Of a stretch of DNA of 47,238 nt, positions 10,505-30,667 are shown piece after piece. The notes under the pieces are model-generated. The model saw nothing but the letters and a program-made list of their open reading frames with translations. It did no database searches and had not been told where the DNA came from. The position numbers were made by a program, and so were the translations under genes. Source of the DNA: a virus (lineage: Duplodnaviria; Caudoviricetes); the IMG/VR virus record IMGVR_UViG_3300029823_000002, positions 1-47,238 of that record. One strand, written 5' to 3'. How positions within the stretch are numbered: the stretch's first letter is position 1; each line of letters begins with the position of its first letter.

Positions 10505-10810
10505 TCACCAAAAGTCATTAAGTGTTTCTTTCGCAGCTTTGTTGATCTTTTCTTTCTCTTTGTCTTCCACTTGTGTTTGTACAAATTGCGTAGTCTGTAC
10601 ATTATGTTGGTATTCGCCGATCATTCTTTCGAGTCTTGCAATCCGTTCCTCATACTCCGCATCCCTTTGCCCTTTACCTCTATCCTTCACCAATCGGCGT
10701 ATCGCTTCAGAGAAGGGGATTCCTTGCCTTTCGGTTTCTTCTAGGAATTCATTCATGTAAGCGTCAGAATCGGAATCCCACACGATGTTCTTTCGAATAT
10801 AATTAGGCAT
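10505..10810 (-). CDS. parR: ParR-like adaptor (ribbon-helix-helix plus coiled coil)
   Basis: N-terminal beta-alpha-alpha pattern ('RKNIVW...FSEAIRRLV'), translationally coupled downstream of the ParM-like gene. Confidence 0.65.
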   Translation of the reverse strand: MPNYIRKNIVWDSDSDAYMNEFLEETERQGIPFSEAIRRLVKDRGKGQRDAEYEERIARLERMIGEYQHNVQTTQFVQTQVEDKEKEKINKAAKETLNDFW

Positions 10811-11819
10811 CTTTCATCTTCGCCATAATCTCCTGTCCGAAGCAATTTGCCCAACGGCTTTGGTGAAGTCCTTGAATGTCATTGGTATAAAAGGCGGGTT
10901 TGAGATACGGAACTAAGACGGAACCTCCACCGCTGACTAAAACATGATTGACTTGTTTTCTGTCAGCTTCAGGGATTAACGCTGAGATTTGGTCAATGAT
11001 CTTGCCAGCGTGTTTTCTCAGAATCTCGGACGCTTCCGGAGCGATTAAATGTGTCATGTCACCGATGCGAATGCTCTTTTTCTCGAAGATGTCTTTCAAT
11101 TCAGCGATGTTGGGTTCGTAGTCGTATGCGTCATTGAGGAAGTTAAGCATTTCAATCTCAGCAACGTGCATTCCTAAGTCCCATGCACCCGAAAATTCTT
11201 CAATGAATCTTAACCCCTTGAAATAAGCAATGTTACAGGTCTGGCTGCCGATGTCAATTACTGCTACGTTATCTTTAGCAAGATCAGGCCGAACTATTTC
11301 AAGCGTATTCGGATCATATACTGCTGAGTACATTGCGCCAACACCTTCGGGCAGGACGCGCACATCTGTAAACTTGAAGCGGATTGTTTTGCCAGTATGC
11401 TTTCCCCTGGTGATCCTTACTTCATATGCGCGTAAAAGGTCTTGCTGGAACTTCACCTTGTTTTTTGAGAAGTCGCGTATGTTGTAATTGACTACTGCTC
11501 GGCCTTCCCAGTCGTTCATGTTGTGTTCAGCGAGAATAAAAGCGGTGCCTGCGGCGAGCTGTACTCTTGTGTGAGGATCGCTTGTTTTATCTCTTACCCT
11601 GACTTGCCGGTTAAAACGATCTTCATTGAGTGCTAATTCACCGATCAGGTATTCGCGCCCGTCATACTTGATCGCGAGGGAATCAATGCCGCCTTCGAGG
11701 TCGGGCATGCGAAACTCTTTGCCGCTTCCAACGGCTGCAGGAAAGGAATAAGTGTTATCGCCAAAAACAAACCTGCATTCACTTCTGCCTGAGTCTGATA
11801 CTATTCGGTTGATTTTCAT
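10803..11819 (-). CDS. parM: ParM/StbA-family actin-like ATPase
   Basis: Actin phosphate motifs 'DSGRSECR', 'VLPEGVGA', 'VIDIGSQTCN', 'VLVSGGGS' and 'WAN..G'. Confidence 0.88.
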   Translation of the reverse strand: MKINRIVSDSGRSECRFVFGDNTYSFPAAVGSGKEFRMPDLEGGIDSLAIKYDGREYLIGELALNEDRFNRQVRVRDKTSDPHTRVQLAAGTAFILAEHNMNDWEGRAVVNYNIRDFSKNKVKFQQDLLRAYEVRITRGKHTGKTIRFKFTDVRVLPEGVGAMYSAVYDPNTLEIVRPDLAKDNVAVIDIGSQTCNIAYFKGLRFIEEFSGAWDLGMHVAEIEMLNFLNDAYDYEPNIAELKDIFEKKSIRIGDMTHLIAPEASEILRKHAGKIIDQISALIPEADRKQVNHVLVSGGGSVLVPYLKPAFYTNDIQGLHQSRWANCFGQEIMAKMKDA

Positions 11820-12280: not shown

Positions 12281-13501
12281 ATGGCAAAGCGTGTCGAGCC
12301 TATGGAGACTCCAGGGGTAATCGGCATGATAACATTGATCTTTGGGATCATGGCTGAAGTGATGAGTAGGGATCCGTTCTGGAGGTGGTTTTCATACGCC
12401 GCCGTGGGAATGATTGCATATCATTTTGCGCCTGATCCGCGCTGGAAGATAAAGACTTTGTTTAAGTCCTTGAAGCTATACTTCCAAGACGATGATAAGG
12501 ATTGGTTCCCTAGAATATTCGATGAACATGTACTTGAAAACGGTAAGGAGTATGTCATGACACTTCCTCCCGGCATATGCTCTGAGGATTTTAAGAAGAA
12601 CGAGCAAAGATTGTCAGAGGGATTAGGAGCGCACGTTGAAACGCGATACGAGAATGGAACCATCAGAATGAAGATCCTTGAAAACAAGCTCATGAGTAAA
12701 TACGATTATGAAGTCATCGAAACAAAGAATCCGGTTGAGATCCCTATTGGTTATGGCTATGAAGGGTTGCACACCTTAACGTTTAGCGATCAGGTTTCCG
12801 CTCTGCTTGTGGGAGGTTATCCCGGTTCCGGAAAGTCAGTGTTTCTTAGGCAAGCTATTGTTAATCTCATATTGACTAAAAGCCCTAGCGATTTACAGCT
12901 TTACCTTGTTGACTTAAAGAATGGTGTTGAGTTTGAGATGTTTAAAAGGGTTGAACATGTGGCCGGATTCGCCAAGAATGAATCCGAAGCGATGAAGCTG
13001 TTCAAATACCTTGAATATCTCACCGAAGAACGCTACAAGAAGCTGAGTAAAGCTAATGTGGTCAATGTTACTGAATACAACAAAAAGGGTAAAATGGATT
13101 ATCATTTAGTGATCATCGATGAGTATGCCAATCTCAGGGAAAACAAAGAGATCCAAGCAAAGGTTGATAAGCTGTTAAGGGTCTGTCGCGCGGTCGGGAT
13201 TTACTTTATTGTCTGCACCCAAAGACCTTCTGCTGAAACAGTGCCGGGATTGATCAAGGCAAACACTCAATCAGTGTTAGCGTTCGCCGTAAAGAATCAA
13301 GTCAATTCAAGGATCTTGCTGGACAACGATAAAGCGGCTGATATTGAAATACCGGGTCGCGCAATCTATCAGCAAGGGTCTAAAGACAAGGAGGTGCAGG
13401 TAATGTTCTTGCCTGATATTAAGGCGCGAAGACTGATCGCGCCCTATAACCGCAAGCAAATTCCGGAAGCAAAGAATAACAGGGGTGTTGAAAAGTGTTG
13501 A
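12281..13501 (+). CDS. FtsK/SpoIIIE-family DNA translocase ATPase
   Basis: N-terminal TM segments, Walker A GYPGSGKS, 'LVDLKNGVEF', Walker B 'VIIDE', 'CTQRP', 'PGRAI'. Confidence 0.9.
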   Translation: MAKRVEPMETPGVIGMITLIFGIMAEVMSRDPFWRWFSYAAVGMIAYHFAPDPRWKIKTLFKSLKLYFQDDDKDWFPRIFDEHVLENGKEYVMTLPPGICSEDFKKNEQRLSEGLGAHVETRYENGTIRMKILENKLMSKYDYEVIETKNPVEIPIGYGYEGLHTLTFSDQVSALLVGGYPGSGKSVFLRQAIVNLILTKSPSDLQLYLVDLKNGVEFEMFKRVEHVAGFAKNESEAMKLFKYLEYLTEERYKKLSKANVVNVTEYNKKGKMDYHLVIIDEYANLRENKEIQAKVDKLLRVCRAVGIYFIVCTQRPSAETVPGLIKANTQSVLAFAVKNQVNSRILLDNDKAADIEIPGRAIYQQGSKDKEVQVMFLPDIKARRLIAPYNRKQIPEAKNNRGVEKC

Positions 13502-16004: not shown

Positions 16005-16661
16005 CTATCTGTAGTATACCTTAGATTGTTCCTCAAGCTGCTGCTTTAAGCGTTCGTTCTCCAAAAGTGTCTTCTGGAGTAACGCTTTGAGTGATTGATC
16101 ATCCTTGTTACCGGAAAGATATTTGCCGATCTGCTGCCAATTATGCGAAGATAGGTACCTGTCGGTTGTTGCTAAACTTGCGTGTCTGAGCAAGTCCCTG
16201 ACGACCGGCAATGGTACTCCATTGTCAACGAGGTTTGTTGCAGTTGTTCTGCGTATGTTATGCCATCTTAAGCGATTGTTTAATTTGGCGTGTTTGCGAA
16301 TTGTTTCAATGATAGCTTGCATTGCTCTATTGGTGAGCTGATCGCCGTTTTCAGTGCAAAAGAACCATTCTGAGTCAGGGCGATACTTTGCCCATTTTAG
16401 GATTAGTGGATCGTCTTTAGGGAAGGGAAGTTCGGCGTATTTGTCACCCTTGCCTATGACTGTGAAGTAACCGGCTTTCCAGTTGAAGTCTGTTGCCTTG
16501 ATTGTTCTTAGTTCAGTACGCCTTAAGGCAGTTGTTTCTGCGAATCTGAGCATAGCCTTGTTTCGGCATCTTACCAAAGCATCGGGGAAACGGTCACATG
16601 CTTTATATGCGCGTTCCATTTCATCCTCTGAGATTACCGAACATACTACACGCTGACGCAT
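16005..16661 (-). CDS. Tyrosine recombinase, catalytic domain only (resolvase/invertase-like)
   Basis: 'LRRTEL', 'GKGDK', 'HNIRRT', 'LRHASLATTDRY' give the complete R-K-H-R-H-Y set. 218 aa with no N-terminal arm or core-binding domain. Confidence 0.9.
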   Translation of the reverse strand: MRQRVVCSVISEDEMERAYKACDRFPDALVRCRNKAMLRFAETTALRRTELRTIKATDFNWKAGYFTVIGKGDKYAELPFPKDDPLILKWAKYRPDSEWFFCTENGDQLTNRAMQAIIETIRKHAKLNNRLRWHNIRRTTATNLVDNGVPLPVVRDLLRHASLATTDRYLSSHNWQQIGKYLSGNKDDQSLKALLQKTLLENERLKQQLEEQSKVYYR

Positions 16662-19942: not shown

Positions 19943-20622
19943 AGCCGAAAAAGCTTCCTATTATATCCTGGCAGTCAACCAGTAAAACCCTCTCTATCAG
20001 CCCATATCCTAATAGGAAATGAGGCCAATCAGCAGCGAAACACAACCATAGCTGTGGAAAACTAAGCAAACACTTGAAATGAGTGGGCTTATTGACTGTC
20101 TTTAAAACCCCTGCTACAAACTGTTTGAGTGTCATTATTATGTATTGTAAACAAAGACCAGCTAGAAGGCTTAGGTAACTAGTTACATATTATTGATGGA
20201 ATGCAGTAATGACAAGGGTTTGGGGAGGGTGCCGAAAATTGGGCAGGTAAATACTTGACAAGGCCAACCACCCAACACAACCATAATTATTAAACACATC
20301 GTATCTTGCCCAACACAGTGTTGATTTTCTCAACCATTAAGTAATCCTTAATACTCTCCTATCATACGAACTGATTACATCTAATGCACTCAGCTAAATA
20401 TATGATAACGCTCACACTTAAGACAATCAGTAACAGCATTAACACTCCAAAGAAGATCCACCAAATGATCTCTAGTAATGATCTCCCTCTCATGTAATCT
20501 CTCTCCTTCTGACTCTCTATAGATTCTTTCTCTCCTGGCATTCTCTCCAGGTATTTTCCCTTCCATTTAATATGGCAATTCGCAGCGGCGAAATTTACCA
20601 AAAACATTTTATGAAATAGTAG

Positions 20623-20651
20623 TTGACATCTGCAATATGCTGTAGTAATAT
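20623..20651 (+). promoter_or_regulatory. Early promoter 1
   Basis: TTGACA-N17-TAATAT followed by GTAGACGA, which is shared with the promoter at 22873. Confidence 0.75.
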
Positions 20652-20687
20652 GTAGACGAGAGATAAAACTTGTGGGGGGAACGACGA

Positions 20688-20969
20688 ATGACAAAGGCCG
20701 AAAGAATTTTCATGAGAACTCATATAGATTGTGCGCTACACATAAAAGTGTGGGGGTACACTGAGAACGTAGGATTCAATGGAGTAACGGTAGGCGAGCA
20801 TGAATTAATTAGTACAAGAACCGTAAACGCTCTTAGAAAGATTCTGGAGTCAAGAAAGCGCTTACTGGAAACCGATCTGAAATTGAACGTGGTGAGTCCG
20901 GGAAAATACCAAGAGGAAAAGAACGTTTTGAGCATGGTGGAAGTTACGTTAAACAATACCAAATTCTAA
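20688..20969 (+). CDS. Early hypothetical protein
   Basis: First ORF after the promoter, GGGGG RBS. Confidence 0.65.
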   Translation: MTKAERIFMRTHIDCALHIKVWGYTENVGFNGVTVGEHELISTRTVNALRKILESRKRLLETDLKLNVVSPGKYQEEKNVLSMVEVTLNNTKF

Positions 20970-20970
20970 G

Positions 20971-21027
20971 CGCAGAGTGACGGGGAGCAATCCCCGGTAA
21001 TGCGGAGGGCCGGTCACAATCCCGGCC
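20971..21027 (+). ncRNA. Twister ribozyme (circularly permuted, P1 closed by a loop)
   Basis: CGCAGAGUGA-C-GGGGA(GCAA)UCCCC-G-G-UAAUGCG...GGCCGG-UCACAAUC-CCGGCC. P2 is CGCA/UGCG and pseudoknot T1 is GUGA/UCAC. Predicted cleavage U20998^A20999. Confidence 0.85.
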
Positions 21028-21046
21028 AAGAAGGAGGAAATGAAAA

Positions 21047-21409
21047 ATGACAATGGCTGAGAAGTTTATGATCGCTGTTCGGGAATATGTTGAGCGCACC
21101 AACGAAAAATCTTATGACGCTATATGGGAAGATGTTGGCTTTAGAGAAAACGAATGGTTATTCGATGCGAAAACCTTCGATGACGACATCCAACCCAAGG
21201 TTTACTTTACGGACGGAACTGCTATAGTATGGAATGAATACACAGAGCAATTCGAGTATGCTCGCGCTGGAGAGAGCACCCAAACCTTCATGCGGCTAAT
21301 CCATACTTTCCCTCAGTTTGCAGGAAAATTCGTATTTGATAATCCCACCGAAGACGATCTCAAAAAGGCAATGAAGCACATCATGCGGAAAATGATTAAT
21401 CAAAAGTAA
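21047..21409 (+). CDS. Early hypothetical protein (paralogue of 22924..23109)
   Basis: AGGAGG RBS, shares the MTMAE start and 'F.DG...VWN' with 22924..23109. Confidence 0.7.
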   Translation: MTMAEKFMIAVREYVERTNEKSYDAIWEDVGFRENEWLFDAKTFDDDIQPKVYFTDGTAIVWNEYTEQFEYARAGESTQTFMRLIHTFPQFAGKFVFDNPTEDDLKKAMKHIMRKMINQK

Positions 21410-21460
21410 TTTACCCTGTAGTCAGCGCATCTATATGGTGCGCTGGATAAAGGATAAATT
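21408..21460 (+). other. Long imperfect RNA hairpin (RNase III-type processing stem candidate)
   Basis: AATTTACCCT..CAGCGCATC / GGTGCGCTG..AGGATAAATT, no U-tail, fills the whole intergenic spacer. Confidence 0.5.
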
Positions 21461-21470
21461 GGAAGGAGGG

Positions 21471-21584
21471 ATGGCATTGAGGCGCATTATGGAGATCCTT
21501 AACACAGATGTTGATCATTGGATCTGCGGAATCAGTATCGGATTGGCTCTCACATTCATTTTTTTCGCCGCAAGTGCTATTTAA
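21471..21584 (+). CDS. Small membrane peptide (37 aa)
   Basis: AAGGAGG RBS, MALRRIMEILNTDVDHWICGISIGLALTFIFFAASAI. Confidence 0.6.
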   Translation: MALRRIMEILNTDVDHWICGISIGLALTFIFFAASAI

Positions 21585-21612
21585 AGCTAAGTATTATATG
21601 GGAGGTAGTAAA

Positions 21613-22851
21613 ATGAAGCATTACATCTTTAATCTCGAAACCACCAAGATCGAGCTACACTTTGAAAAATCCGAGTATAACGCCTTATCAGAAGCCCAAA
21701 AAGCCGAATTAAAAAGCGCATTTCTTTGGAGCAATTACGGTAAGTGCTGGGTCAGTCGGGCAAAAGAGCCAAACCTTTGGAGAGCAAAGGAAGTCGCTCG
21801 CAAGTTGGGATTCGCTGAGGAACAGCGCGAAGGCGAGAGAATCTCCTTCGCCGAACAGCAGAATCGGCAATCAGCACGCGCCGAATCTCGCGCCGACCGT
21901 TACGATGAGTATGCTTCAAACGCAGAGCGCCGCGCCCAAGTTCTCCAGAAGCCTATTAGCGATATGCGCGGAGACATTGCTTTTTTCACACAGCCGAACA
22001 TTAATAGTAGTTCTGGCCGTGCCTTTGCGAACCGCCGCGAAAGAATGTTTAATCAATATCGCAAGGGTTTCGAGGAATACCGCAAAAGTGACTATTTCAG
22101 ATCTCGCGCCGCAATCGCTCGCGAGACTGCCGATCAAGGCAAGTTTGAAGATGTCGCGTATCTTGATCGCCGCATTAAAGAGGTTCGCACAGAGATCAAA
22201 AAGCGCGAAAAGAACGTTATCCATTACGAGGATCAATTATATCGCATCGAGAACGGCGAAGCGCTCACGCGATACAACGGCGAACCCATAACAGCCGATG
22301 AGATCAATTCCTGGCTTGAACGCGAACTTGAATTAATCGAAGTTGCAATGGATAAAGAGGGTTATTTGCTAAACCGCCTTGATGAGTGCGGCGGGATTAA
22401 ATTTTCTCCGGAAAACATCAAGGTTGGTTACATTGTTGAAATCAAACGACATGATCAAGTCGAAGTGGTCAGCAAAGGCAAAATAAACTTTACCTATAAG
22501 ATCCTGGCTGGCGGCGCGGCTGGTATGGTTTTAACCGCCGCATATGCTGAAATCGTTAAGATTGTCAAAGCCGAAAACGCGAAATCAGAGATTGTCAACC
22601 CATTTGCAACCGGCGACATACTCACACTTAACCGCCCCGCCGATAACAGTATTTATCGGGCGTTTCAGGTTTTGAAATCCACTGAAAAAAGCATCCAGGT
22701 ACAAGAGGTTGAAGTTGTTAATGGCATGCCGCAGCCGGGGAAATTCCGTTCCGGTAGTAAATCCGAGCGCAAGGGCATCGTTAAAAGCAAATTCAGTGAT
22801 TATGTCGGCGCTTATTATGATGATCGGCAAATGCATAAATACATCGCCTAA
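21613..22851 (+). CDS. DUF3560-domain protein
   Basis: 'RAESRADRYDEYASNAERRA...I.F.QP' helical motif followed by SH3-like segments, GGAGG RBS before ATG 21613. Confidence 0.7.
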   Translation: MKHYIFNLETTKIELHFEKSEYNALSEAQKAELKSAFLWSNYGKCWVSRAKEPNLWRAKEVARKLGFAEEQREGERISFAEQQNRQSARAESRADRYDEYASNAERRAQVLQKPISDMRGDIAFFTQPNINSSSGRAFANRRERMFNQYRKGFEEYRKSDYFRSRAAIARETADQGKFEDVAYLDRRIKEVRTEIKKREKNVIHYEDQLYRIENGEALTRYNGEPITADEINSWLERELELIEVAMDKEGYLLNRLDECGGIKFSPENIKVGYIVEIKRHDQVEVVSKGKINFTYKILAGGAAGMVLTAAYAEIVKIVKAENAKSEIVNPFATGDILTLNRPADNSIYRAFQVLKSTEKSIQVQEVEVVNGMPQPGKFRSGSKSERKGIVKSKFSDYVGAYYDDRQMHKYIA

Positions 22852-22868
22852 TTAAAATCCTGTAAATA

Positions 22869-22901
22869 CTATTTGACAAGTAGAATATCATATGATAAGA
22901 T
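22869..22901 (+). promoter_or_regulatory. Early promoter 2 overlapped by operator CTATTTGACAAGTAG
   Basis: TTGACA-N17-TAAGAT-GTAGACGA, with the operator covering the -35 element. Confidence 0.75.
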
Positions 22902-22923
22902 GTAGACGAAAGGAGGGTTGAGC

Positions 22924-23109
22924 ATGACAATGGCTGAGAACTGGTTAACCTTTATACCTGCAACCGAAGAATATATCAAACAGCATAATATCCAATCCGC
23001 AGAAGATCCAATCTTGGCAAAGTATCCGCATACATCGTATGTGACCTTCGCGGACGGATCGCGTGTGGTGTGGAATAAGGATAGTCAAGCGTGGGAGTTA
23101 GTTAGATAA
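22924..23109 (+). CDS. Early hypothetical protein (paralogue of 21047..21409)
   Basis: AAGGAGG RBS, first 17 nt identical to the start of 21047. Confidence 0.65.
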   Translation: MTMAENWLTFIPATEEYIKQHNIQSAEDPILAKYPHTSYVTFADGSRVVWNKDSQAWELVR

Positions 23110-23111
23110 AT

Positions 23112-23165
23112 CGCAGAGGGAGCCACGGAGGGCTTAATGCGGCAGCCGGGTTCCCAATCCCCGGC
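23112..23165 (+). ncRNA. Twister ribozyme (circularly permuted)
   Basis: CGCAGAGGG-AGCC(ACGGAG)GGCU-UAAUGCG...GCCGGG-UUCCCAAUC-CCCGGC. T1 covaries to GGGA/UCCC. Predicted cleavage U23135^A23136. Confidence 0.82.
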
Positions 23166-23194
23166 AAAGGCCGAAATAAGAGGAGGAAAGAGAA

Positions 23195-23776
23195 ATGATT
23201 AAAACCAATGCCGAGGAAATCCGCGCAGAGTTTGCCCCATTGTACTTGCGTTATAGCGGCCAGACCAACCCGCAGCCCGCGCACATCGAGATCGACCCCG
23301 AAGAAAAAACCATTACCGCAGAAGCCAACCCCGAAATCGGTAACGCCGTCCCGATGAACGTCTGGCATGGCCGCGCCCATCGTGTCAACATCAGCCCGTA
23401 CTACACCGGCAAGCAAGTTGCCGAAATCCTTGAAAACGTCGACTTTCAGAACATGGTGCAGCGTGTTTTTGATGGCTATTCTTGCGCCTATGACGGCGGC
23501 AACCACAACGGCCGCCTCACCGACGATGCTAAAGCCGCCCTGGAGGAAATGGAGTGCTTTTTGCAGGAGATGGATCAATACCTGAACGTCTCCGATTCTG
23601 GCGTGTCCGTCTGCGCCCCAGAGGATTGGTTTAGCGAGCTGCCGGATCTCGCCGGGAAAAGCGATGAAGAACTTTCCTTGCTCGCCGATCAGTTCCGCAC
23701 GGAAGCCGAGTCCGACAATGTTTGCATTGATGGCGACATCCTTCGTTTTTTGAAGGACCGTCGGGACGGAATATAA
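23195..23776 (+). CDS. Acidic early hypothetical protein
   Basis: GAGGAGG RBS, 193 aa, GC-rich codon usage. Confidence 0.7.
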   Translation: MIKTNAEEIRAEFAPLYLRYSGQTNPQPAHIEIDPEEKTITAEANPEIGNAVPMNVWHGRAHRVNISPYYTGKQVAEILENVDFQNMVQRVFDGYSCAYDGGNHNGRLTDDAKAALEEMECFLQEMDQYLNVSDSGVSVCAPEDWFSELPDLAGKSDEELSLLADQFRTEAESDNVCIDGDILRFLKDRRDGI

Positions 23777-23853
23777 GGAAGCGCACAAGCGGCCACGGAC
23801 GGCCTTTCCTCTTCCCGAATCTCCGGGGCCGGAGCGCCCCCTGACCAAGGCAA

Positions 23854-23909
23854 AACCCCCAAACCGCCAGTAGCGCAATGCGCCGGACTTGGCCGGGCGG
23901 TGTGAGGGG
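23854..23909 (+). ncRNA. Unrecognised structured RNA motif, copy A
   Basis: AACCCCCAAACCGCC...GGCGGTGTGAGGGG stem enclosing internal hairpins. Confidence 0.5.
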
Positions 23910-23943
23910 AATAAAAAGAAAATGACGTGAGGAGGCGAGAACA

Positions 23944-24483
23944 ATGTTAGCGCATATCGTGCAGGAGTTTGCGGAGCATACTGGCGTTTCGGTGCGCATA
24001 CTCACCGAAGACCGGTATAACGCCGCATACTACGTCATGGATGGCGTTCCCGGGCACGTCATATGCATTAATGAGCGTTTCGCAGATGAGGCGAAGCGTG
24101 TGACGGCTTCGTGCCAGTGGAAGGAGCTGTTGGCCAAAAACACAGAAGTTTTGCGGATGCTCGGGGTAGCCCCCACCCCGAAAAATCTAATCCTGTGTAC
24201 CTTGCTTCACGAGTTGGGTCACAGGGTACATAACGCGCGGATCGGTAATGATGAGTATCTTCGTTGCCACGACGCGCACGCCGCAGCTTGTCAAAAGGCG
24301 CGCCAGGACGCTCTCGCAGGGCGGATCTCGGCGAGTACATATAAGTCCCACTATGGCGGCGGGTTGTTGGAGCGATACGCCAATGCGTTCGCTCGCACCC
24401 ACATCCGAAAAGTAGCCGCAGCGGACTGGGCGGATCTGGCCACGGTCTGCCAAGCGGCGAAATTAGCCGTTGATTGGTGGTAG
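23944..24483 (+). CDS. HExxH zinc metallopeptidase-like protein (ImmA/IrrE-like fold)
   Basis: 'ICIN', 'LLHELGHRVH', 'LERYANAFA'. Confidence 0.65.
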   Translation: MLAHIVQEFAEHTGVSVRILTEDRYNAAYYVMDGVPGHVICINERFADEAKRVTASCQWKELLAKNTEVLRMLGVAPTPKNLILCTLLHELGHRVHNARIGNDEYLRCHDAHAAACQKARQDALAGRISASTYKSHYGGGLLERYANAFARTHIRKVAAADWADLATVCQAAKLAVDWW

Positions 24484-24515
24484 AAGTCAGGAGACGGCTC
24501 TCTTGACTGGGACAG

Positions 24516-24580
24516 AACCCCCAAACCACGAGGCATGGCTGTGACGCTCAGCCCCGACCCAGTGGCGTGGTGTGAGGGGG
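24516..24580 (+). ncRNA. Unrecognised structured RNA motif, copy B
   Basis: AACCCCCAAACCACG...CGTGGTGTGAGGGGG with compensatory changes relative to copy A. Confidence 0.5.
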
Positions 24581-24604
24581 AAAAATGAAATTGGAGGGAC
24601 GAAA

Positions 24605-24790
24605 ATGAGTGGCAAGATAGTAATCGAATTCACGCCCGCAGAATTTGATCTAGTTGTTGCCGCCGCCGATGCGCTCATCACCGAGATGGGGATGCTTGGC
24701 GGCGATTCCCGAGCTGATGAAGCCATCGCGCTTCTGGATCGGCTTGAAAAAATGCAGTACGAAATGATGGAGGAGAAAGCCGATGATTAG
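24605..24790 (+). CDS. Small acidic protein
   Basis: GGAGGG RBS, 61 aa, strongly Asp/Glu-rich. Confidence 0.6.
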   Translation: MSGKIVIEFTPAEFDLVVAAADALITEMGMLGGDSRADEAIALLDRLEKMQYEMMEEKADD

Positions 24791-25118
24791 TTTGATCAAT
24801 CTCACACCCCATGCCATCAATTTGATGGCAGATGGGGAAGCCATCACCATTAAGCCATCTGGCATCATTGCCAGATGCACGACGGCTCGCGAGCAGGTTG
24901 ATTCAGTTGAAATTGATGGGGTTGTATTCCCCGTCAACGAAATCAAATTCGGTGAAGTGCAGGGGCTGCCTGCGCCGAAGCCGGACACCTTCTATGTCGT
25001 TTCGTCCCTGGTCGCTAATGCGGCCAAGTACCGGAAAGATCTTCTGACCGTCGATGAAGCGGTCAGGGATGGCAACGGTAATATTATCGGTGCGCGCGCG
25101 CTAGCTCGCACCAATTAA
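24783..25118 (+). CDS. NLTPH-motif protein, candidate Crn4-like ring nuclease
   Basis: 'INLTPH.I', 'PSG..AR', 'GLP.P....YVVS', 'R.DL', 'VRD..G.IIG' motif set. Confidence 0.5.
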   Translation: MISLINLTPHAINLMADGEAITIKPSGIIARCTTAREQVDSVEIDGVVFPVNEIKFGEVQGLPAPKPDTFYVVSSLVANAAKYRKDLLTVDEAVRDGNGNIIGARALARTN

Positions 25119-25129
25119 GGAGGGACAAC

Positions 25130-25408
25130 ATGCGTTTCTTATGCACAGTGCCTGTTGAGGGTACCGAGAGGCCGGGGATGTCTGCGAATGGCTATCCGGC
25201 AATCTTCTGCGACAAAGCGGAAGTATATGCCTATAGCGATGGCCGTCCGTGTAAAGTCAAAATATTGCAGGATCAGTTCCTGCACTACGACGCGGCTCGT
25301 TATCCCGAGGGGCATTTAGATGTTTGCCCCTATTGCGGAACGCCAAATTATCAGGACGGTGTTTCGCTCCGCAATGGGCATGACTGCTACTATTGTGGGA
25401 GCAACTAA
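25130..25408 (+). CDS. Zinc-ribbon protein
   Basis: CPYC...CYYC, AAGGAGG RBS. Confidence 0.65.
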   Translation: MRFLCTVPVEGTERPGMSANGYPAIFCDKAEVYAYSDGRPCKVKILQDQFLHYDAARYPEGHLDVCPYCGTPNYQDGVSLRNGHDCYYCGSN

Positions 25409-25423
25409 GCCCAAGGATGGGCT

Positions 25424-25474
25424 TTCTCCCCTTGTTAAGCCCTCCCTACATGAGAGGGTTTAAGAAAGGGAGAA
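25424..25474 (+). other. Long hairpin sequestering the RBS of the next gene
   Basis: TTCTCCC..TTAAGCCCTC / GAGGGTTTAA..GGGAGAA. Confidence 0.5.
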
Positions 25475-25478
25475 TAAA

Positions 25479-25652
25479 ATGAGGCGCGTTATCTATCCTT
25501 GCGTTTTTGATCTGGCAATGGTTAGCGTATACGATGTCGACCGAATCAACGCATACGGCGAAATGTACTGCGTGGCCGAAGGGATCCCGCCAGAAGAGGT
25601 TGATCAACGTTGGGATGAGTACGTCCAGCGCAGAACGCTTGACAGTGAATAA
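25479..25652 (+). CDS. Small hypothetical protein (57 aa)
   Basis: Own translation MRRVIYPCVFDLAMVSVYDVDRINAYGEMYCVAEG..., GGGAG RBS. Confidence 0.55.
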   Translation: MRRVIYPCVFDLAMVSVYDVDRINAYGEMYCVAEGIPPEEVDQRWDEYVQRRTLDSE

Positions 25653-25667
25653 TAGATGGTATATACT
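25639..25667 (+). promoter_or_regulatory. sigma-A promoter pointing antisense into the putative terS
   Basis: TTGACA-N17-TATACT. Confidence 0.6.
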
Positions 25668-25700
25668 ATCTGTGAGGGGTGATTTTCGGGAAAGGAGGGA

Positions 25701-26144
25701 TTAGGATGATTCCCCCGCCAATTCTTTCAGCTTAGTTAATAATTCCAGCGTTTTCTTGGCGAATTTCTTATCTTTCTTGTAAAGTTCAAACTTATCTGTT
25801 CCCGCCCAAATAGCTCTAAGGATTAAGGAGGTGTCATCAATTTCTGACAAGTTTTCGCTTTCGTCCTTTTTATCGAGAAGCCCACCAATACCGGCTAACA
25901 GCTTCTGAGACTGTGCGTTGCCATTTACCGCTGCGCTATGGATGGCGTTGAGTAGTTCAGCTTTTTTAGCTAAAGATAAGCTATGATTTTTTAACTGCTT
26001 GTCCGCATGTTCCGCGTATTCCGTGGATTTGCGGATTGTCCTCAGCCTTGAGTCACTTATTTCCAGCTTATCAGCAATCTTAGACAAGGATGTTCCGGAA
26101 AGCTCCAGGTCAACGATCTTTGGTATTAAATCAGTGTTTTCCAT
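25701..26144 (-). CDS. Putative terminase small subunit (HTH)
   Basis: N-terminal HTH 'SLSKIADKLEISDSRLRTIR' and 'LNAI..AA.NGN.Q..KL...IGG' pattern seen in Bacillota-phage small terminases. Confidence 0.55.
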   Translation of the reverse strand: MENTDLIPKIVDLELSGTSLSKIADKLEISDSRLRTIRKSTEYAEHADKQLKNHSLSLAKKAELLNAIHSAAVNGNAQSQKLLAGIGGLLDKKDESENLSEIDDTSLILRAIWAGTDKFELYKKDKKFAKKTLELLTKLKELAGESS

Positions 26145-26173
26145 GTAATCACATCCAGAGGGGGGTATTTAAA

Positions 26174-26332
26174 TTGCCAAAGACAACAACAATACGGATA
26201 ACTGCAAGGATGCACAAGGCGATGAAGGATCATTTAGAAAGGAGTTGCTGCCAGGGATACGGCGCAATGAAAGGATTCTTGGAAAAGGCTATTGAAAATC
26301 AGATAGCAAGAGAAGCCCCCCACAGGCAGTGA
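26174..26332 (+). CDS. Small ribbon-helix-helix-like protein
   Basis: GAGGGGG RBS before TTG, 'KTTTIRIT..MH..MK.H...FLEKAIENQ', followed by a terminator hairpin. Confidence 0.5.
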   Translation: MPKTTTIRITARMHKAMKDHLERSCCQGYGAMKGFLEKAIENQIAREAPHRQ

Positions 26333-26344
26333 GGGGCTTTTGCT

Positions 26345-26617
26345 TTACTCTACAACAATCCAATCTTCGGCAAGCATGTCTGTCTGCGAAGCCAGCCACG
26401 GCACGCGGCTTTTGGGCGCATCGGGGTTGGTCGTTTGCAGTCCTGTAGTGTCGATAAAGATGTACGGGGAGGTCATCTTGCTGTGTTCGTCCGGCCGCTG
26501 CAGTTCAACAAATATGCCCTTGCCGTTCCATCCCGAACGTGCGACCTTACAACCATTCTTCAGTCTTTGTAATGCTTCGGAAAAATCGAGATATGGATTC
26601 AGTGAACTACACACCAC
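26345..26617 (-). CDS. tad2: DUF2829 / Tad2-like anti-defence sponge protein, native start codon disrupted by an IS remnant
   Basis: 'DFSEAL..LK.G.KVAR.GWNGKG.F', 'PYI.I', 'VPWLASQTDMLAEDW' signature. Confidence 0.8.
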   Translation of the reverse strand: MVCSSLNPYLDFSEALQRLKNGCKVARSGWNGKGIFVELQRPDEHSKMTSPYIFIDTTGLQTTNPDAPKSRVPWLASQTDMLAEDWIVVE

Positions 26618-26740
26618 CTACGCTACGCTTAGAGGTGGGTGCTTCCTGCTCAAGTATACTTATGTACACAGTATCAACAGGCTATCCCCGTAGTTCCTAC
26701 GGTTGTTTATATTTATTTTACGCCGCTAATCCTAATATTC
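26582..26740 (-). ncRNA. TnpB omegaRNA scaffold plus predicted guide UGAAUCCAUAUCUCGAUUUU (5' boundary approximate)
   Basis: ACCGTAGGAACTACGGGGATAGCCTG...CAGGAAGCACCCACCTCT...AGGTGG..TAGTTCAC, typical of IS605 right ends. Confidence 0.7.
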
Positions 26741-26935
26741 TTATTCCTTCATCTCTTATATTCTTAGCGGCATTGTAATCTCTGTCAATTATTGCCCCAC
26801 AGCAAGAACATACCCATTCTCTTTCTGATAATTGTAGTTCGGAATATATATGACCACATTTATTACAAGTTTTAGAAGAAGGAAACCATTTATCAATTCT
26901 AATTAATTGACCGCCTTTATCTTCTAACTTATATT
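26602..26935 (-). mobile_element. IS200/IS605-family remnant: 3' end of tnpB plus right end/omegaRNA
   Basis: AT-rich insert ending ...GTAGTTCAC, preceded by TTTAA. Removing it restores the TAATG stop/start overlap. Confidence 0.88.
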
Positions 26936-26939
26936 TTAA
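26718..26939 (-). pseudogene. tnpB: tnpB C-terminal fragment (zinc ribbon plus RuvC III)
   Basis: LKYKLEDKGGQLIRIDKWFPSSKTCNKCG...REWVCSCCGAIIDRDYNAAKNIRDEG. No start codon and no N-terminal part. Confidence 0.9.
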
Positions 26940-27250
26940 ATCGCCCTCATTTCATTATTTTCTACCGGATCATATGTCTGCTCGAATATGTCCGGTTTGC
27001 AGGGGTAGAATTCGCCTTTTACGCCTTTGATGATCCAGTCTCCCGGAGAAGCGGTCATGTCGCCCTCCAACGTTGAAATCACTAAGCGCATCACGGGCGG
27101 CGCGACCCCTGCCTGATAAGCGGTATCAATAATGTCGCGGTGAAGTTTATGCCCGACAAAAGCATCAATTTCATCGGCATTGAATCCGTTGTATTGAATC
27201 GCCGCAACTTCGACCGGCCTTTTACGATAAAGCATTGTTGGGAACCTCAT
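26936..27250 (-). CDS. Conserved phage protein ('EGDM.ASPGDWIIKG..GEFYPCKPDIF' family)
   Basis: Widely seen phage motif set, function unknown. Confidence 0.75.
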   Translation of the reverse strand: MRFPTMLYRKRPVEVAAIQYNGFNADEIDAFVGHKLHRDIIDTAYQAGVAPPVMRLVISTLEGDMTASPGDWIIKGVKGEFYPCKPDIFEQTYDPVENNEMRAI

Positions 27251-29236: not shown

Positions 29237-29566
29237 TCATCTCCTTGTTTCTAAATCAATCATTTCCGGTAGAACTTCCTCGAAGTGCATAACTGCGAAA
29301 ACATTGAAAGCACATTGAGCAAGATGATCTTCGTCCTTATGACCCGCAAGGTATTGATTGAGGTGTCTTAATGCCGAATCAAGGCAGCGACTTGCAGGGA
29401 TGCCCTTTTCCCAGTTACGGTCAGCGTATTTCTTTGCGCCTTTCTCATACACCAAGGCCAATCTTTTGAGTGCAAAAGGTGGTATAAGGTCAAACCGCCC
29501 TTTGCCATCCCTGCGGTCGCGCACCGCTCCACTCTCGAAGTTCTCTCTTTCGCCTGAGTCTTTCAT
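29237..29566 (-). CDS. dATP/dGTP diphosphohydrolase-domain (DUF5664) protein
   Basis: 'F.SGAVRD...GKGRFDLIP', 'GA.KY..RNWEKG', 'DS..RHL', 'EDHLA....N'. Confidence 0.85.
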   Translation of the reverse strand: MKDSGERENFESGAVRDRRDGKGRFDLIPPFALKRLALVYEKGAKKYADRNWEKGIPASRCLDSALRHLNQYLAGHKDEDHLAQCAFNVFAVMHFEEVLPEMIDLETRR

Positions 29567-29924
29567 GTCGTAATTCAACAGTATCGCCCTCCATTAAGTC
29601 TAATACTTCATCCCAAGTCCATTTACCGAAATTCTTATCATCAATGTAATAATCGGCTCCGATTTTACGTGAATCGTTATTGTATTCTTGAATAAGTCCA
29701 GGTGGGTTCTCGTTAAAATAATCAAATGGTACATCGTGATTGCAAAGGTAATCTATTGCGTTCTGTTTGTCCTTGCCCTCTCGACAGCTCCAGATGATAA
29801 TGATATGTCCTGCATCATGCAGTAATTGGATCGCTTCTTGCGCTTCTGGAATAAGTTCCGCTTCGTGAATGTTTGGCCATCCGTTTTTCGCTATTGTCCC
29901 ATCAAAGTCAATCGCAAATATCAT
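29490..29924 (-). CDS. HAD-superfamily hydrolase
   Basis: 'IFAIDFDGTI', 'IWSCR', 'NEN', 'RK..ADYYIDDKN'. Confidence 0.85.
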   Translation of the reverse strand: MIFAIDFDGTIAKNGWPNIHEAELIPEAQEAIQLLHDAGHIIIIWSCREGKDKQNAIDYLCNHDVPFDYFNENPPGLIQEYNNDSRKIGADYYIDDKNFGKWTWDEVLDLMEGDTVELRHERLRRKRELREWSGARPQGWQRAV

Positions 29925-30667
29925 AACAATACCTCCGCGCTTTTGTAGCGGCCATTGAGATAAATTGGTGAGGCACCCCTTGAACTCGGAGGAAATGATC
30001 CTCGCTGCGCATATCCTCCATAAGACAGCCAATGAGCGGCAGACACATGTAATTGCTCAACTTCTCGAACTATGTTGTTTTGAGGATCAGGCATAAAAAA
30101 ATTGCGCTTAAATGCGCTTTTCAGATGATCGTGTCCATGTAAGTAAATGTCGGCATAAACAATGGTGTTAACGTTATTGACTCTCCCTCGATAGCCCTCG
30201 CCATGAAAGGCATACACCGTATAGCAAACTCTTTTTCCATGCGAATCTTTGCCAAGCGGAATCTTTAGTATGCCGCCGTTTTCCATATACGGAATGTCTA
30301 ATGTCTTGCAAACAAAAGCAATGGGGCTTAACCCATCACCCTTCTTCGCTAATCTTCGTTCGTGATTGCCATCATCAGCCATCGCCATAATCCAAGGTTT
30401 TAACTCTTTACACTCTTCGATCAGCCATTCTTCGCTCTGTCCTACGGTTCGCGTCTGCTCACCTGGGTTTGTTTTACTACCCGACACAGCGTAATTCAGC
30501 CAATCGCCAATTCCAATTAAGCAGGGATGATCAATCCCTTTAATCTTCTGTTTAAACTTTTTCCACAAGGACTCATCGAAAAGCATGTCTTCACTGTGTA
30601 GATCCGAAACTCCGTATATTTCTGCTTTATCTAAGTTGCCCAAATATGGTATCTCGATCATTTCCAA
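29921..30667 (-). CDS. Calcineurin-like metallophosphoesterase
   Basis: 'SDLH', 'GD', 'GNHE', 'FHG', 'GHDH' motifs. Confidence 0.85.
   Translation of the reverse strand: MEMIEIPYLGNLDKAEIYGVSDLHSEDMLFDESLWKKFKQKIKGIDHPCLIGIGDWLNYAVSGSKTNPGEQTRTVGQSEEWLIEECKELKPWIMAMADDGNHERRLAKKGDGLSPIAFVCKTLDIPYMENGGILKIPLGKDSHGKRVCYTVYAFHGEGYRGRVNNVNTIVYADIYLHGHDHLKSAFKRNFFMPDPQNNIVREVEQLHVSAAHWLSYGGYAQRGSFPPSSRGASPIYLNGRYKSAEVLL

Follow-up and report, generated by a model that had tools for sequence, protein, structure and literature searches.

An operon of short genes in a tailed phage carries copies of an RNA motif in two of its intergenic gaps, and sequences of the twister-P5 type lie in the same kind of gap. 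The question raised by this locus is whether the motif is itself a self-cleaving ribozyme or an RNA of some other kind. The natural self-cleaving ribozymes known so far fall into no more than about nine or ten structural classes (PMC10085705). If the motif does cleave itself, a further class would represent a new RNA route to self-cleavage catalysis. The natural swaps between motif and twister described below make it testable why phages place ribozymes between genes.

The window (the whole stretch of DNA analyzed, 47,238 nucleotides) is an entire virus record with a terminal repeat of 86 bases, assigned to a tailed phage by terminase, portal, and capsid matches. Sequencing runs that contain at least half of it are labeled as fermentation metagenome or metagenome, and the host is probably a member of the Bacillota, as suggested by strong ribosome sites and closest DnaB matches at 33%. 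Short plus-strand genes, mostly unassigned in function, occupy ∼20600-25650 behind two promoter-like sites of the sigma-70 type (Table 1); this is presumably the early region. Elsewhere, the window encodes an FtsK-like ATPase on the opposite strand inside the packaging region (12281-13501, plus strand), a partition protein (10803-11819, minus), and a short tyrosine recombinase (16005-16661, minus), which together possibly mark a plasmid-like temperate phage, as well as a Tad2-like Thoeris anti-defense protein (26345-26617, minus; PF11195, E 7e-23) and an HAD phosphatase with a weak PNKP-phosphatase match (29490-30032, minus). Enzymes of the HAD/PNKP-phosphatase type can heal cyclic-phosphate RNA ends.

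Two copies of a pseudoknotted motif

A preliminary description of the locus had reported two copies with identical outer arms, a covarying inner stem, and unrelated interiors. The arms are identical: A 12-mer recurs exactly at 23854 and 24516 and an 11-mer at 23899 and 24569, with no further site without mismatches elsewhere in the window, and the inner stems (CGCC/GGCG versus CACG/CGTG), upstream hairpins, A-rich linkers, and ribosome sites are present at both copies as described. The interiors, however, are not unrelated, as each terminates in a 3-bp hairpin whose 6-base loop can pair, through its last five bases, with a strand 5' of the start first noted (copy 1: CCAAG with CTTGG; copy 2: CTGGG with CCCAG). 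Thus, the element is a pseudoknot and begins at the UGA of 23842 and 24504. The supposedly conserved bulged A is a purine position (A in 12 and G in four of 16 copies). The two pairs flanking the reported A.G mismatch do appear in single-sequence folds; covariation is silent on whether the bulged purine is enclosed, because the enclosing C-G and A-U pairs are invariant. A descriptor of pairing only, without sequence terms, recovered both copies and one featureless chance match from both strands of the 47 kb. Contigs from the RNA runs of X11 and X14 cover the motif copies, and that of X14 covers the second twister too; these libraries may include DNA, and the contigs show no ends.

Other hairpins of the window are distinct from the motif. 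A terminator-like hairpin at 26310-26345 ends in GTGAGGGG with a bulged A, an echo of the end of the motif's P2, and is no motif copy by the covariance model. Small hairpins with ANGGA-type loops follow stop codons at 23123-23137 and 23791-23804; they resemble CsrA sites and may be plain stable hairpins.

Table 1. Positions of the motif copies, their parts, and neighboring features in the window
Feature	Position	Strand	Basis or remark
Second promoter-like site, sigma-70 type	20623-20651		Similar to the site at 22873..22901
Twister-P5 ribozyme	20971..21025	+	RF02684, 61.5 bits, above cut-off 37.6; same strand and kind of gap as motif
Promoter-like site, sigma-70 type, head of operon	22873..22901	+	Consensus scan and repeat D4; putative function
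Second twister-P5-like ribozyme	23112..23163	+	RF02684, 35.3 bits, E 1.3e-4, just under cut-off 37.6; gap directly before that of copy 1
Gene 5' of copy 1, 193 aa	23195..23776	+	Unassigned; no PHROG/Pfam match; 4 homologues
Upstream hairpin P0 of copy 1	23825..23840	+	5 bp, 1 base from UGA
Motif copy 1	23842..23909	+	Sequence, descriptor, pair counts
Copy 1, 5' edge	UGA 23842-44; P1 23845-49; linker 23850-55		P1, pseudoknot strand
Copy 1, outer stem	P2 23856-59/23906-09		Loop CAA 23860-62 opposite GUGA 23902-05
Copy 1, inner stem and optional hairpin	P3 23863-68/23896-901; P4 23873-83		P4 optional
Copy 1, end hairpin	P5 23884-86/23893-95; P1' 23888-92		Loop A 23887
Gene between copies, 179 aa	23944..24483	+	Unassigned; no PHROG/Pfam match
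Upstream hairpin P0 of copy 2	24490..24503	+	5 bp, directly abuts UGA
Motif copy 2	24504..24579	+	Sequence, descriptor, pair counts
Copy 2, 5' edge	UGA 24504-06; P1 24507-11; linker 24512-17		
Copy 2, stems	P2 24518-21/24576-79; P3 24525-30/24566-71; P4 24537-53		
Copy 2, end hairpin	P5 24554-56/24563-65; P1' 24558-62		One G.U in P5; loop A 24557
Short gene 3' of copy 2	24606..24790	+	Different gene in one relative (L159); joint 24583 to 24785, just behind motif

Homologues and covariation

Both homologues and covarying helices were found: Sixteen distinct full-length copies occur in eight unrelated sequence groups, namely, the group of the window's phage, four groups of metagenome contigs, one 48.6-kb phage (G004), and two genomes of the class Anaerolineae (G216 and G263). 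A metagenome scan over 36 of 64 parts, with a pattern that left out P1, the variable part of P3, and P5, returned 119 loci. These and 41 genome loci together held 162 matches. All 12 unsearched pairs were present in 10 of them, and none of the others had more than 10 of 12; the complete matches belong to close relatives of the window phage (L158/L159 and L244) and to the L206/L258, L225, L184, and L165 groups. Two half-motif scans of IMG/VR gave one genuine record among 33 loci, the G004 phage, which has a long insert, and a covariance model applied to 151 genomes of the class of G006 (Anaerolineae) found 10 copies in G216 and one in G263. At E below 1e-5, no protein is common to the G004 phage and the window; L225 has only an SSB in common with the window, and the G216 and G263 stretches have nothing in common with the other groups at E below 1e-6. 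The G263 copy is part of a replication module that resembles that of a prophage (ERCC4, RecT, primase). In G216, short genes form repeated islands amid host genes, and the copies are found there, up to four in one short operon; no phage structural genes were seen in the G216 stretches examined.

Four patterns run against IMG/VR gave chance matches only (the last two scans covered 25 and 23 of 64 parts), and named phages and plasmids gave no genuine match. None of the 41 loci returned from all GTDB representatives by one 19-letter pattern was genuine; this pattern required CCC/GGG and therefore did not pick up the copies of G216 and G263. Among genome samples, the motif was present in two of 151 genomes of the class of G006 and in G216 alone among 151 of its phylum, and absent from 151 of the class of G005, from 401 of the latter's phylum (exact pattern), and from two small further sets (0/5 and 0/3); the large genome searches scored 32 candidates per genome. 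Neither the motif nor an Rfam match occurs in ten loci that encode relatives of the 193-aa protein, and the motif is absent from 80 loci chosen by a twister-like pattern, many of which are chance matches.

The alignment of these copies (A4: 21 matches, 17 distinct rows, 16 full length, two of which differ in the flank alone) was fitted to the nested helices and not to the pseudoknot. Of its 301 pair cells, 98.3% are paired, and changes on both sides occur in 12 of 18 pairs (three of five in the pseudoknot, three of four in P2, four of six in P3, and two of three in P5), counts that related copies inflate, most of all inside G216. None of 500 shuffles matched these values, and slid structures pair 35-48%. 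An unfitted MAFFT alignment of eight copies is paired in 144 of 144 cells, and single-sequence folds give the same nested helices with the 5' strand mostly free. On the coding strand, non-Watson-Crick cells comprise eight G.U and four A.C.

Fifteen positions are invariant in base in all 16 copies, and two unpaired positions are purines throughout. Invariant in 16 of 16 are GAC at the 5' edge, the G and CA of G-RCAR, CCAAAC, GAC and a G in the loop of P5, GUGUG, and the G that follows the purine; several of these letters were part of search patterns or models, so that conservation is overstated to some degree. Insertions are almost confined to the junction between P3 and P5 (8-47 bases), where a hairpin (P4) is optional, and the spacing from knot to P2 is constant in A4. 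Most copies measure 61-76 bases, and the element as a family spans ∼60-100 bases. Imperfections include an A.C mismatch in the pseudoknot of two G216 copies, a 2-bp P5 in one G216 copy, a change of the U of UGA to A in the G263 copy, and an apparently shorter linker in a low-depth X12 contig. By rough geometry, a straight helix would need a span of ∼59 A, and the linker offers ∼45 A if P1 and P2 coexist, so the fold is probably bent and compact. The motif is a real, well-supported new structured RNA family with four covarying helices, an invariant core, and an intergenic position. Separately, a shortened copy at L157:537-596 (minus strand), with its 3' part identical to L225, has no P0, UGA, or pseudoknot strand, apparently through deletion between short similar sequences.

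Gene context and possible functions

All copies are intergenic, on the coding strand, and 5' of a ribosome site. In a count of 15 copies, from which a near-duplicate and a cut row were excluded, the upstream hairpin P0 has at least 5 bp in 14 and at least 6 bp in 12 (control windows: 38% and 18%) and ends 0-3 bases before the UGA in 14; a ribosome-site-like string, by a loose pattern, lies 4-32 bases downstream and outside the helices in all 15. No gene family is common to the motif's neighbors, and hence no dedicated partner protein is seen. A Ro60/TROVE-vWA gene (L206:235-1500) ends ∼80 bases before the motif and was not seen in other groups; a link to Y RNA was dropped, as such a gene precedes the motif in L206/L258 only. 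Directly upstream of the G004 motif, a non-coding multi-stem region (L446:2280-2420, z -1.9, no Rfam match) is possibly another structured RNA. A sequence like a tRNA 3' half (L159:2835-2880), in which ARAGORN calls no tRNA, is flanked by the phage module on one side and by a host-like FG-GAP gene on the other, is absent from the window, and suggests an attachment site.

The motif had also been said to occupy the same slot as the twisters, and both strand and type of gap do agree; of the two twisters, one passes the Rfam cut-off, and the other falls just below it (Table 1). A twister or HDV-like ribozyme occupies a neighboring gap in three of the eight groups. Besides the window, these are L184, with an HDV-like ribozyme in the preceding gap (34.8 bits) behind the same hairpin as the one before the L184 motif, and L165, with a twister-P5-like ribozyme in the preceding gap (26.5 bits); both score under the Rfam cut-off, with consensus features present. 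An Rfam search of 19 control viral loci (68.6 kb, not limited to early operons) gave zero matches. In the other five groups (L206, L225, G004, G216, and G263), no catalogued ribozyme was found near the motif, the last two having been searched with two families only.

Ribozyme-like sequences also appear in or next to the motif's own slot. A contig of a relative from the X12 run departs from the window at 23809 and continues as the 5' part of twister-P5 (30 letters visible), and gene swaps among relatives break at motif edges (23834, 23915, and 24583). In G216, one gene is preceded by the motif on one contig, and on two other contigs the corresponding gap has a hammerhead-like fragment. This fragment (L475:845-883 and L476:29-67; the motif precedes the same gene in L473) has an 8-bp stem, CUGACGA, and a loop pairing with a downstream strand, and lacks GAAA; it gave no Hammerhead_II match and is a candidate decayed hammerhead or another orphan RNA, not a validated ribozyme. 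In L159 (511-533), the first 14 bases of the first twister are fused to the hairpin that precedes motif copy 1, behind an ORF resembling an ART-PolyVal ADP-ribosyltransferase.

We tentatively favor the reading that the motif is a new structural class of self-cleaving ribozyme, active without protein, as a good possibility that falls short of probable. The pseudoknot, the invariant core, and the exchange of slots with twister lend it support, and it is drawn by analogy because unrelated ribozyme classes share such slots, a logic of shared context that yielded pistol, hatchet, and twister-sister (PMC10085705). The same source lists 50-80 bases, a pseudoknot, and conserved positions as ribozyme-like traits, and most motif copies fall inside that range. 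As tentatively conceived, the class would have a single 5-bp pseudoknot and a core unlike those of twister, hammerhead, HDV, pistol, hatchet, twister-sister, and hairpin; it would belong to phages and mobile elements of anaerobe-rich habitats, be interchangeable with twister and HDV-like ribozymes, and divide operon messages into pieces about the size of a gene. As the RNA is being transcribed, its 5' strand would pair with the loop of P5, and the linker, being short, would force a sharply bent, compact fold that brings together the invariant GAC, G-RCAR, CAAAC, GAC, and GUGUG. Hairpin P0 would then close off the upstream RNA piece, and the motif fold would head the downstream one before a free ribosome site, so that a long message would become gene-sized, separately stabilized pieces, the same role as proposed for the neighboring twisters. 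Processing of polycistronic phage messages has been suggested as the role of phage ribozymes (PMC6765202). [quoted passage not shown] For the motif, where the RNA would be cut, by what chemistry, and how P0 and the fold would protect the pieces are predictions of this model.

Several observations count against self-cleavage. In five of eight groups, no catalogued ribozyme was found nearby, both ribozyme matches outside the window are below cut-off, none of the known catalytic cores is conserved, and the 80 loci chosen by a twister-like pattern, many of them chance matches, lack the motif. The base rate is a further one: Motifs chosen by similar logic failed to cleave, ten of ten in PMC10085705 and three in PMC5737381. 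The shortened L157 copy, the imperfect G216 copies, the U to A change in G263, and the X12 linker were likewise counted against it.

The same context evidence fits a protein-dependent element for processing or stability, which we consider unlikely but worth keeping in view. Here, a host endonuclease would cut at or near the 5' edge, P0 would block 3' exonucleases, and the knotted fold, into which the pseudoknot locks the 5' strand, would stall a 5'-to-3' exonuclease (RNase J) before the ribosome site; in Bacillus subtilis, how abundant a cleavage product is depends on a hairpin downstream, in an RNase J1-dependent manner (PMC11780869). However, P0 and UGA are 0-3 bases apart, which gives an endonuclease little single-stranded RNA to act on, so many invariant bases are not obviously needed if the motif is just a barrier, and it ranges over Anaerolineae-class genomes and a phage whose host is probably in the Bacillota.

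Rather more doubtful is that the RNA stays uncut and is bound by RNA polymerase, the ribosome, or some host protein, in antitermination or in enhancement or repression of translation. The ever-present ribosome site shortly downstream, the presence of up to four copies in one short G216 operon, and the invariant bases as a possible binding surface would suit such a role. Yet neighboring proteins have no common family, the ribosome site lies outside the motif helices, copies are spread through operons and not promoter-adjacent, and a common role in cutting would account better for the swaps with twister sequence.

That the motif is a cleavage stem for RNase III or Mini-III, an option raised in the preliminary description, has become improbable. 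Such stems resemble the motif in their intergenic helix, bulged purine, and phage early operon; P2 together with P3 makes an irregular helix rich in GC, and ACC/GGU of P3 resembles the WSSW tetramer of Mini-III sites (a fit in six of the first eight copies), which lies in long double-stranded RNA (PMC5141509). However, P2 and P3 amount to 10 bp with an internal loop versus stems of 13-25 bp (PMC5141509), B. subtilis sites are >90% paired around the cut (PMC11780869), and P5 is joined across an insertion of at least 8 bases. The tetramer is not conserved (G or C at its fourth position in seven of 17 rows), the helix is short and interrupted, and the covarying pseudoknot is unneeded for such a site and, by the rough geometry above, incompatible with a straight helix.

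A signal at the DNA level, such as a recombination or cassette site folding as single-stranded DNA in the manner of integron attC, is very improbable indeed: The breaks at motif edges and the tandem arrays of short genes in G216 would fit it, but crossovers at the motif are explained by shared sequence alone, every copy is on the coding strand, where G.U cells outnumber A.C, and AAC lies opposite GTG in 16 of 16 copies and not, as in attC, paired with GTT. Both the RNase III/Mini-III and the DNA-level readings fail their tested features.

The motif is a strong, cheaply testable candidate for a new self-cleaving ribozyme class, and the two twisters of the same operon provide an internal positive control for a cleavage test. 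If it cleaves, the motif would also offer a small modular tool, as inserts of 8 to 47 bases are accommodated at one junction. If it does not, the RNA fold remains new and well supported, and it may serve the role of the ribozymes in these slots by another route.

Comparison with known RNA families

The preliminary description had recognized no known family, and Rfam 15, in which hatchet is included, bears this out: Neither copy had a match at the gathering threshold or at E up to 10, a search of 20000-27000 at E up to 10 placed no family on the motif copies, and homologues gave none at E up to 1. Published main texts and the supplements searched did not show the motif strings together, and a literature search by topic at the level of titles and abstracts found no description of the motif. 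Its function is likely of a kind already known, and its fold is without match in the catalogues searched. Among core strings looked for in the first eight copies, no catalytic core of a known ribozyme is conserved.

Twister-P5 (RF02684) is the closest in setting, with the same operon, strand, and kind of gap, a similar size, a pseudoknotted fold, and a following A-rich linker and ribosome site; twister sequence occupies the slot of copy 1 in relatives. The motif differs in having one pseudoknot rather than two, no UAA cleavage loop before P2, another helix order, and no Rfam score. Twisters of the P1, P3, and P5 types have a UAA cleavage loop, with P2 and the T1 strand behind it, and two pseudoknots; in the motif, a UAA..GC string occurs in one of eight copies, and GAGGG, present in eight of eight, is a P2 strand that covaries across 16 copies. 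HDV-like ribozymes (RF02682 and RF01787), which have P3/L3 with P1.1 and a nested double pseudoknot, share a 3-bp hairpin abutting the next helix strand, and RCAR resembles the HDV J4/2 strand, whereas the motif has no L3 or P1.1 on the coding strand (two loose matches to an L3-like string in eight) and another helix order. An HDV on the opposite strand, suggested by antisense string matches in eight of eight, was rejected on inspection, as no P3 encloses them. The hairpin ribozyme has cores in loop A and loop B; loop B strings occur in one of eight copies each and GUC in three, and a reverse-joined version was dropped by inspection. A kink-turn in the internal loop was also rejected, since its register breaks a covarying outer P2 pair.

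Pistol is likewise phage-associated and has a hairpin with a 6-base loop that forms a pseudoknot, of 6 bp and followed by G40-C41-R42, P3, and a G-U site (PMC6154101). The knot of the motif, by contrast, measures 5 bp and has its partner strand upstream; the motif also lacks a G-U site that would lie, in pistol order, between P3 and P2, has another helix order, and gave no Rfam match, and the base after its knot strand, where G40 would be expected, is A in 11 and G in five of 16 copies. Twister-sister has no pseudoknot and a twister-like P4 loop (PMC6154101), whereas the motif has a covarying pseudoknot, and twister-sister core strings occur in one of eight copies. Hatchet, with stems P1-P4 and conserved bulges (PMC6154101), differs in topology and gave no Rfam match. 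The defining CUGAnGA block of hammerhead (PMC10085705) occurs in none of eight copies on either strand, including non-circular permutations, and the internal loop has CAAA in place of the required GAAA in 16 of 16.

The present status of the motif is best described by comparison with the RAGATH-type orphan motifs, structured RNAs in the gene contexts of self-cleaving ribozymes, though no Rfam family matches it; the comparison covers those RAGATH motifs that are in Rfam. Such orphan motifs are reportedly, from work of Weinberg in 2015, structured RNAs drawn from just these contexts. Judged by analogy, the motif, while belonging to no tested ribozyme family, likely works as the adjoining twisters do.
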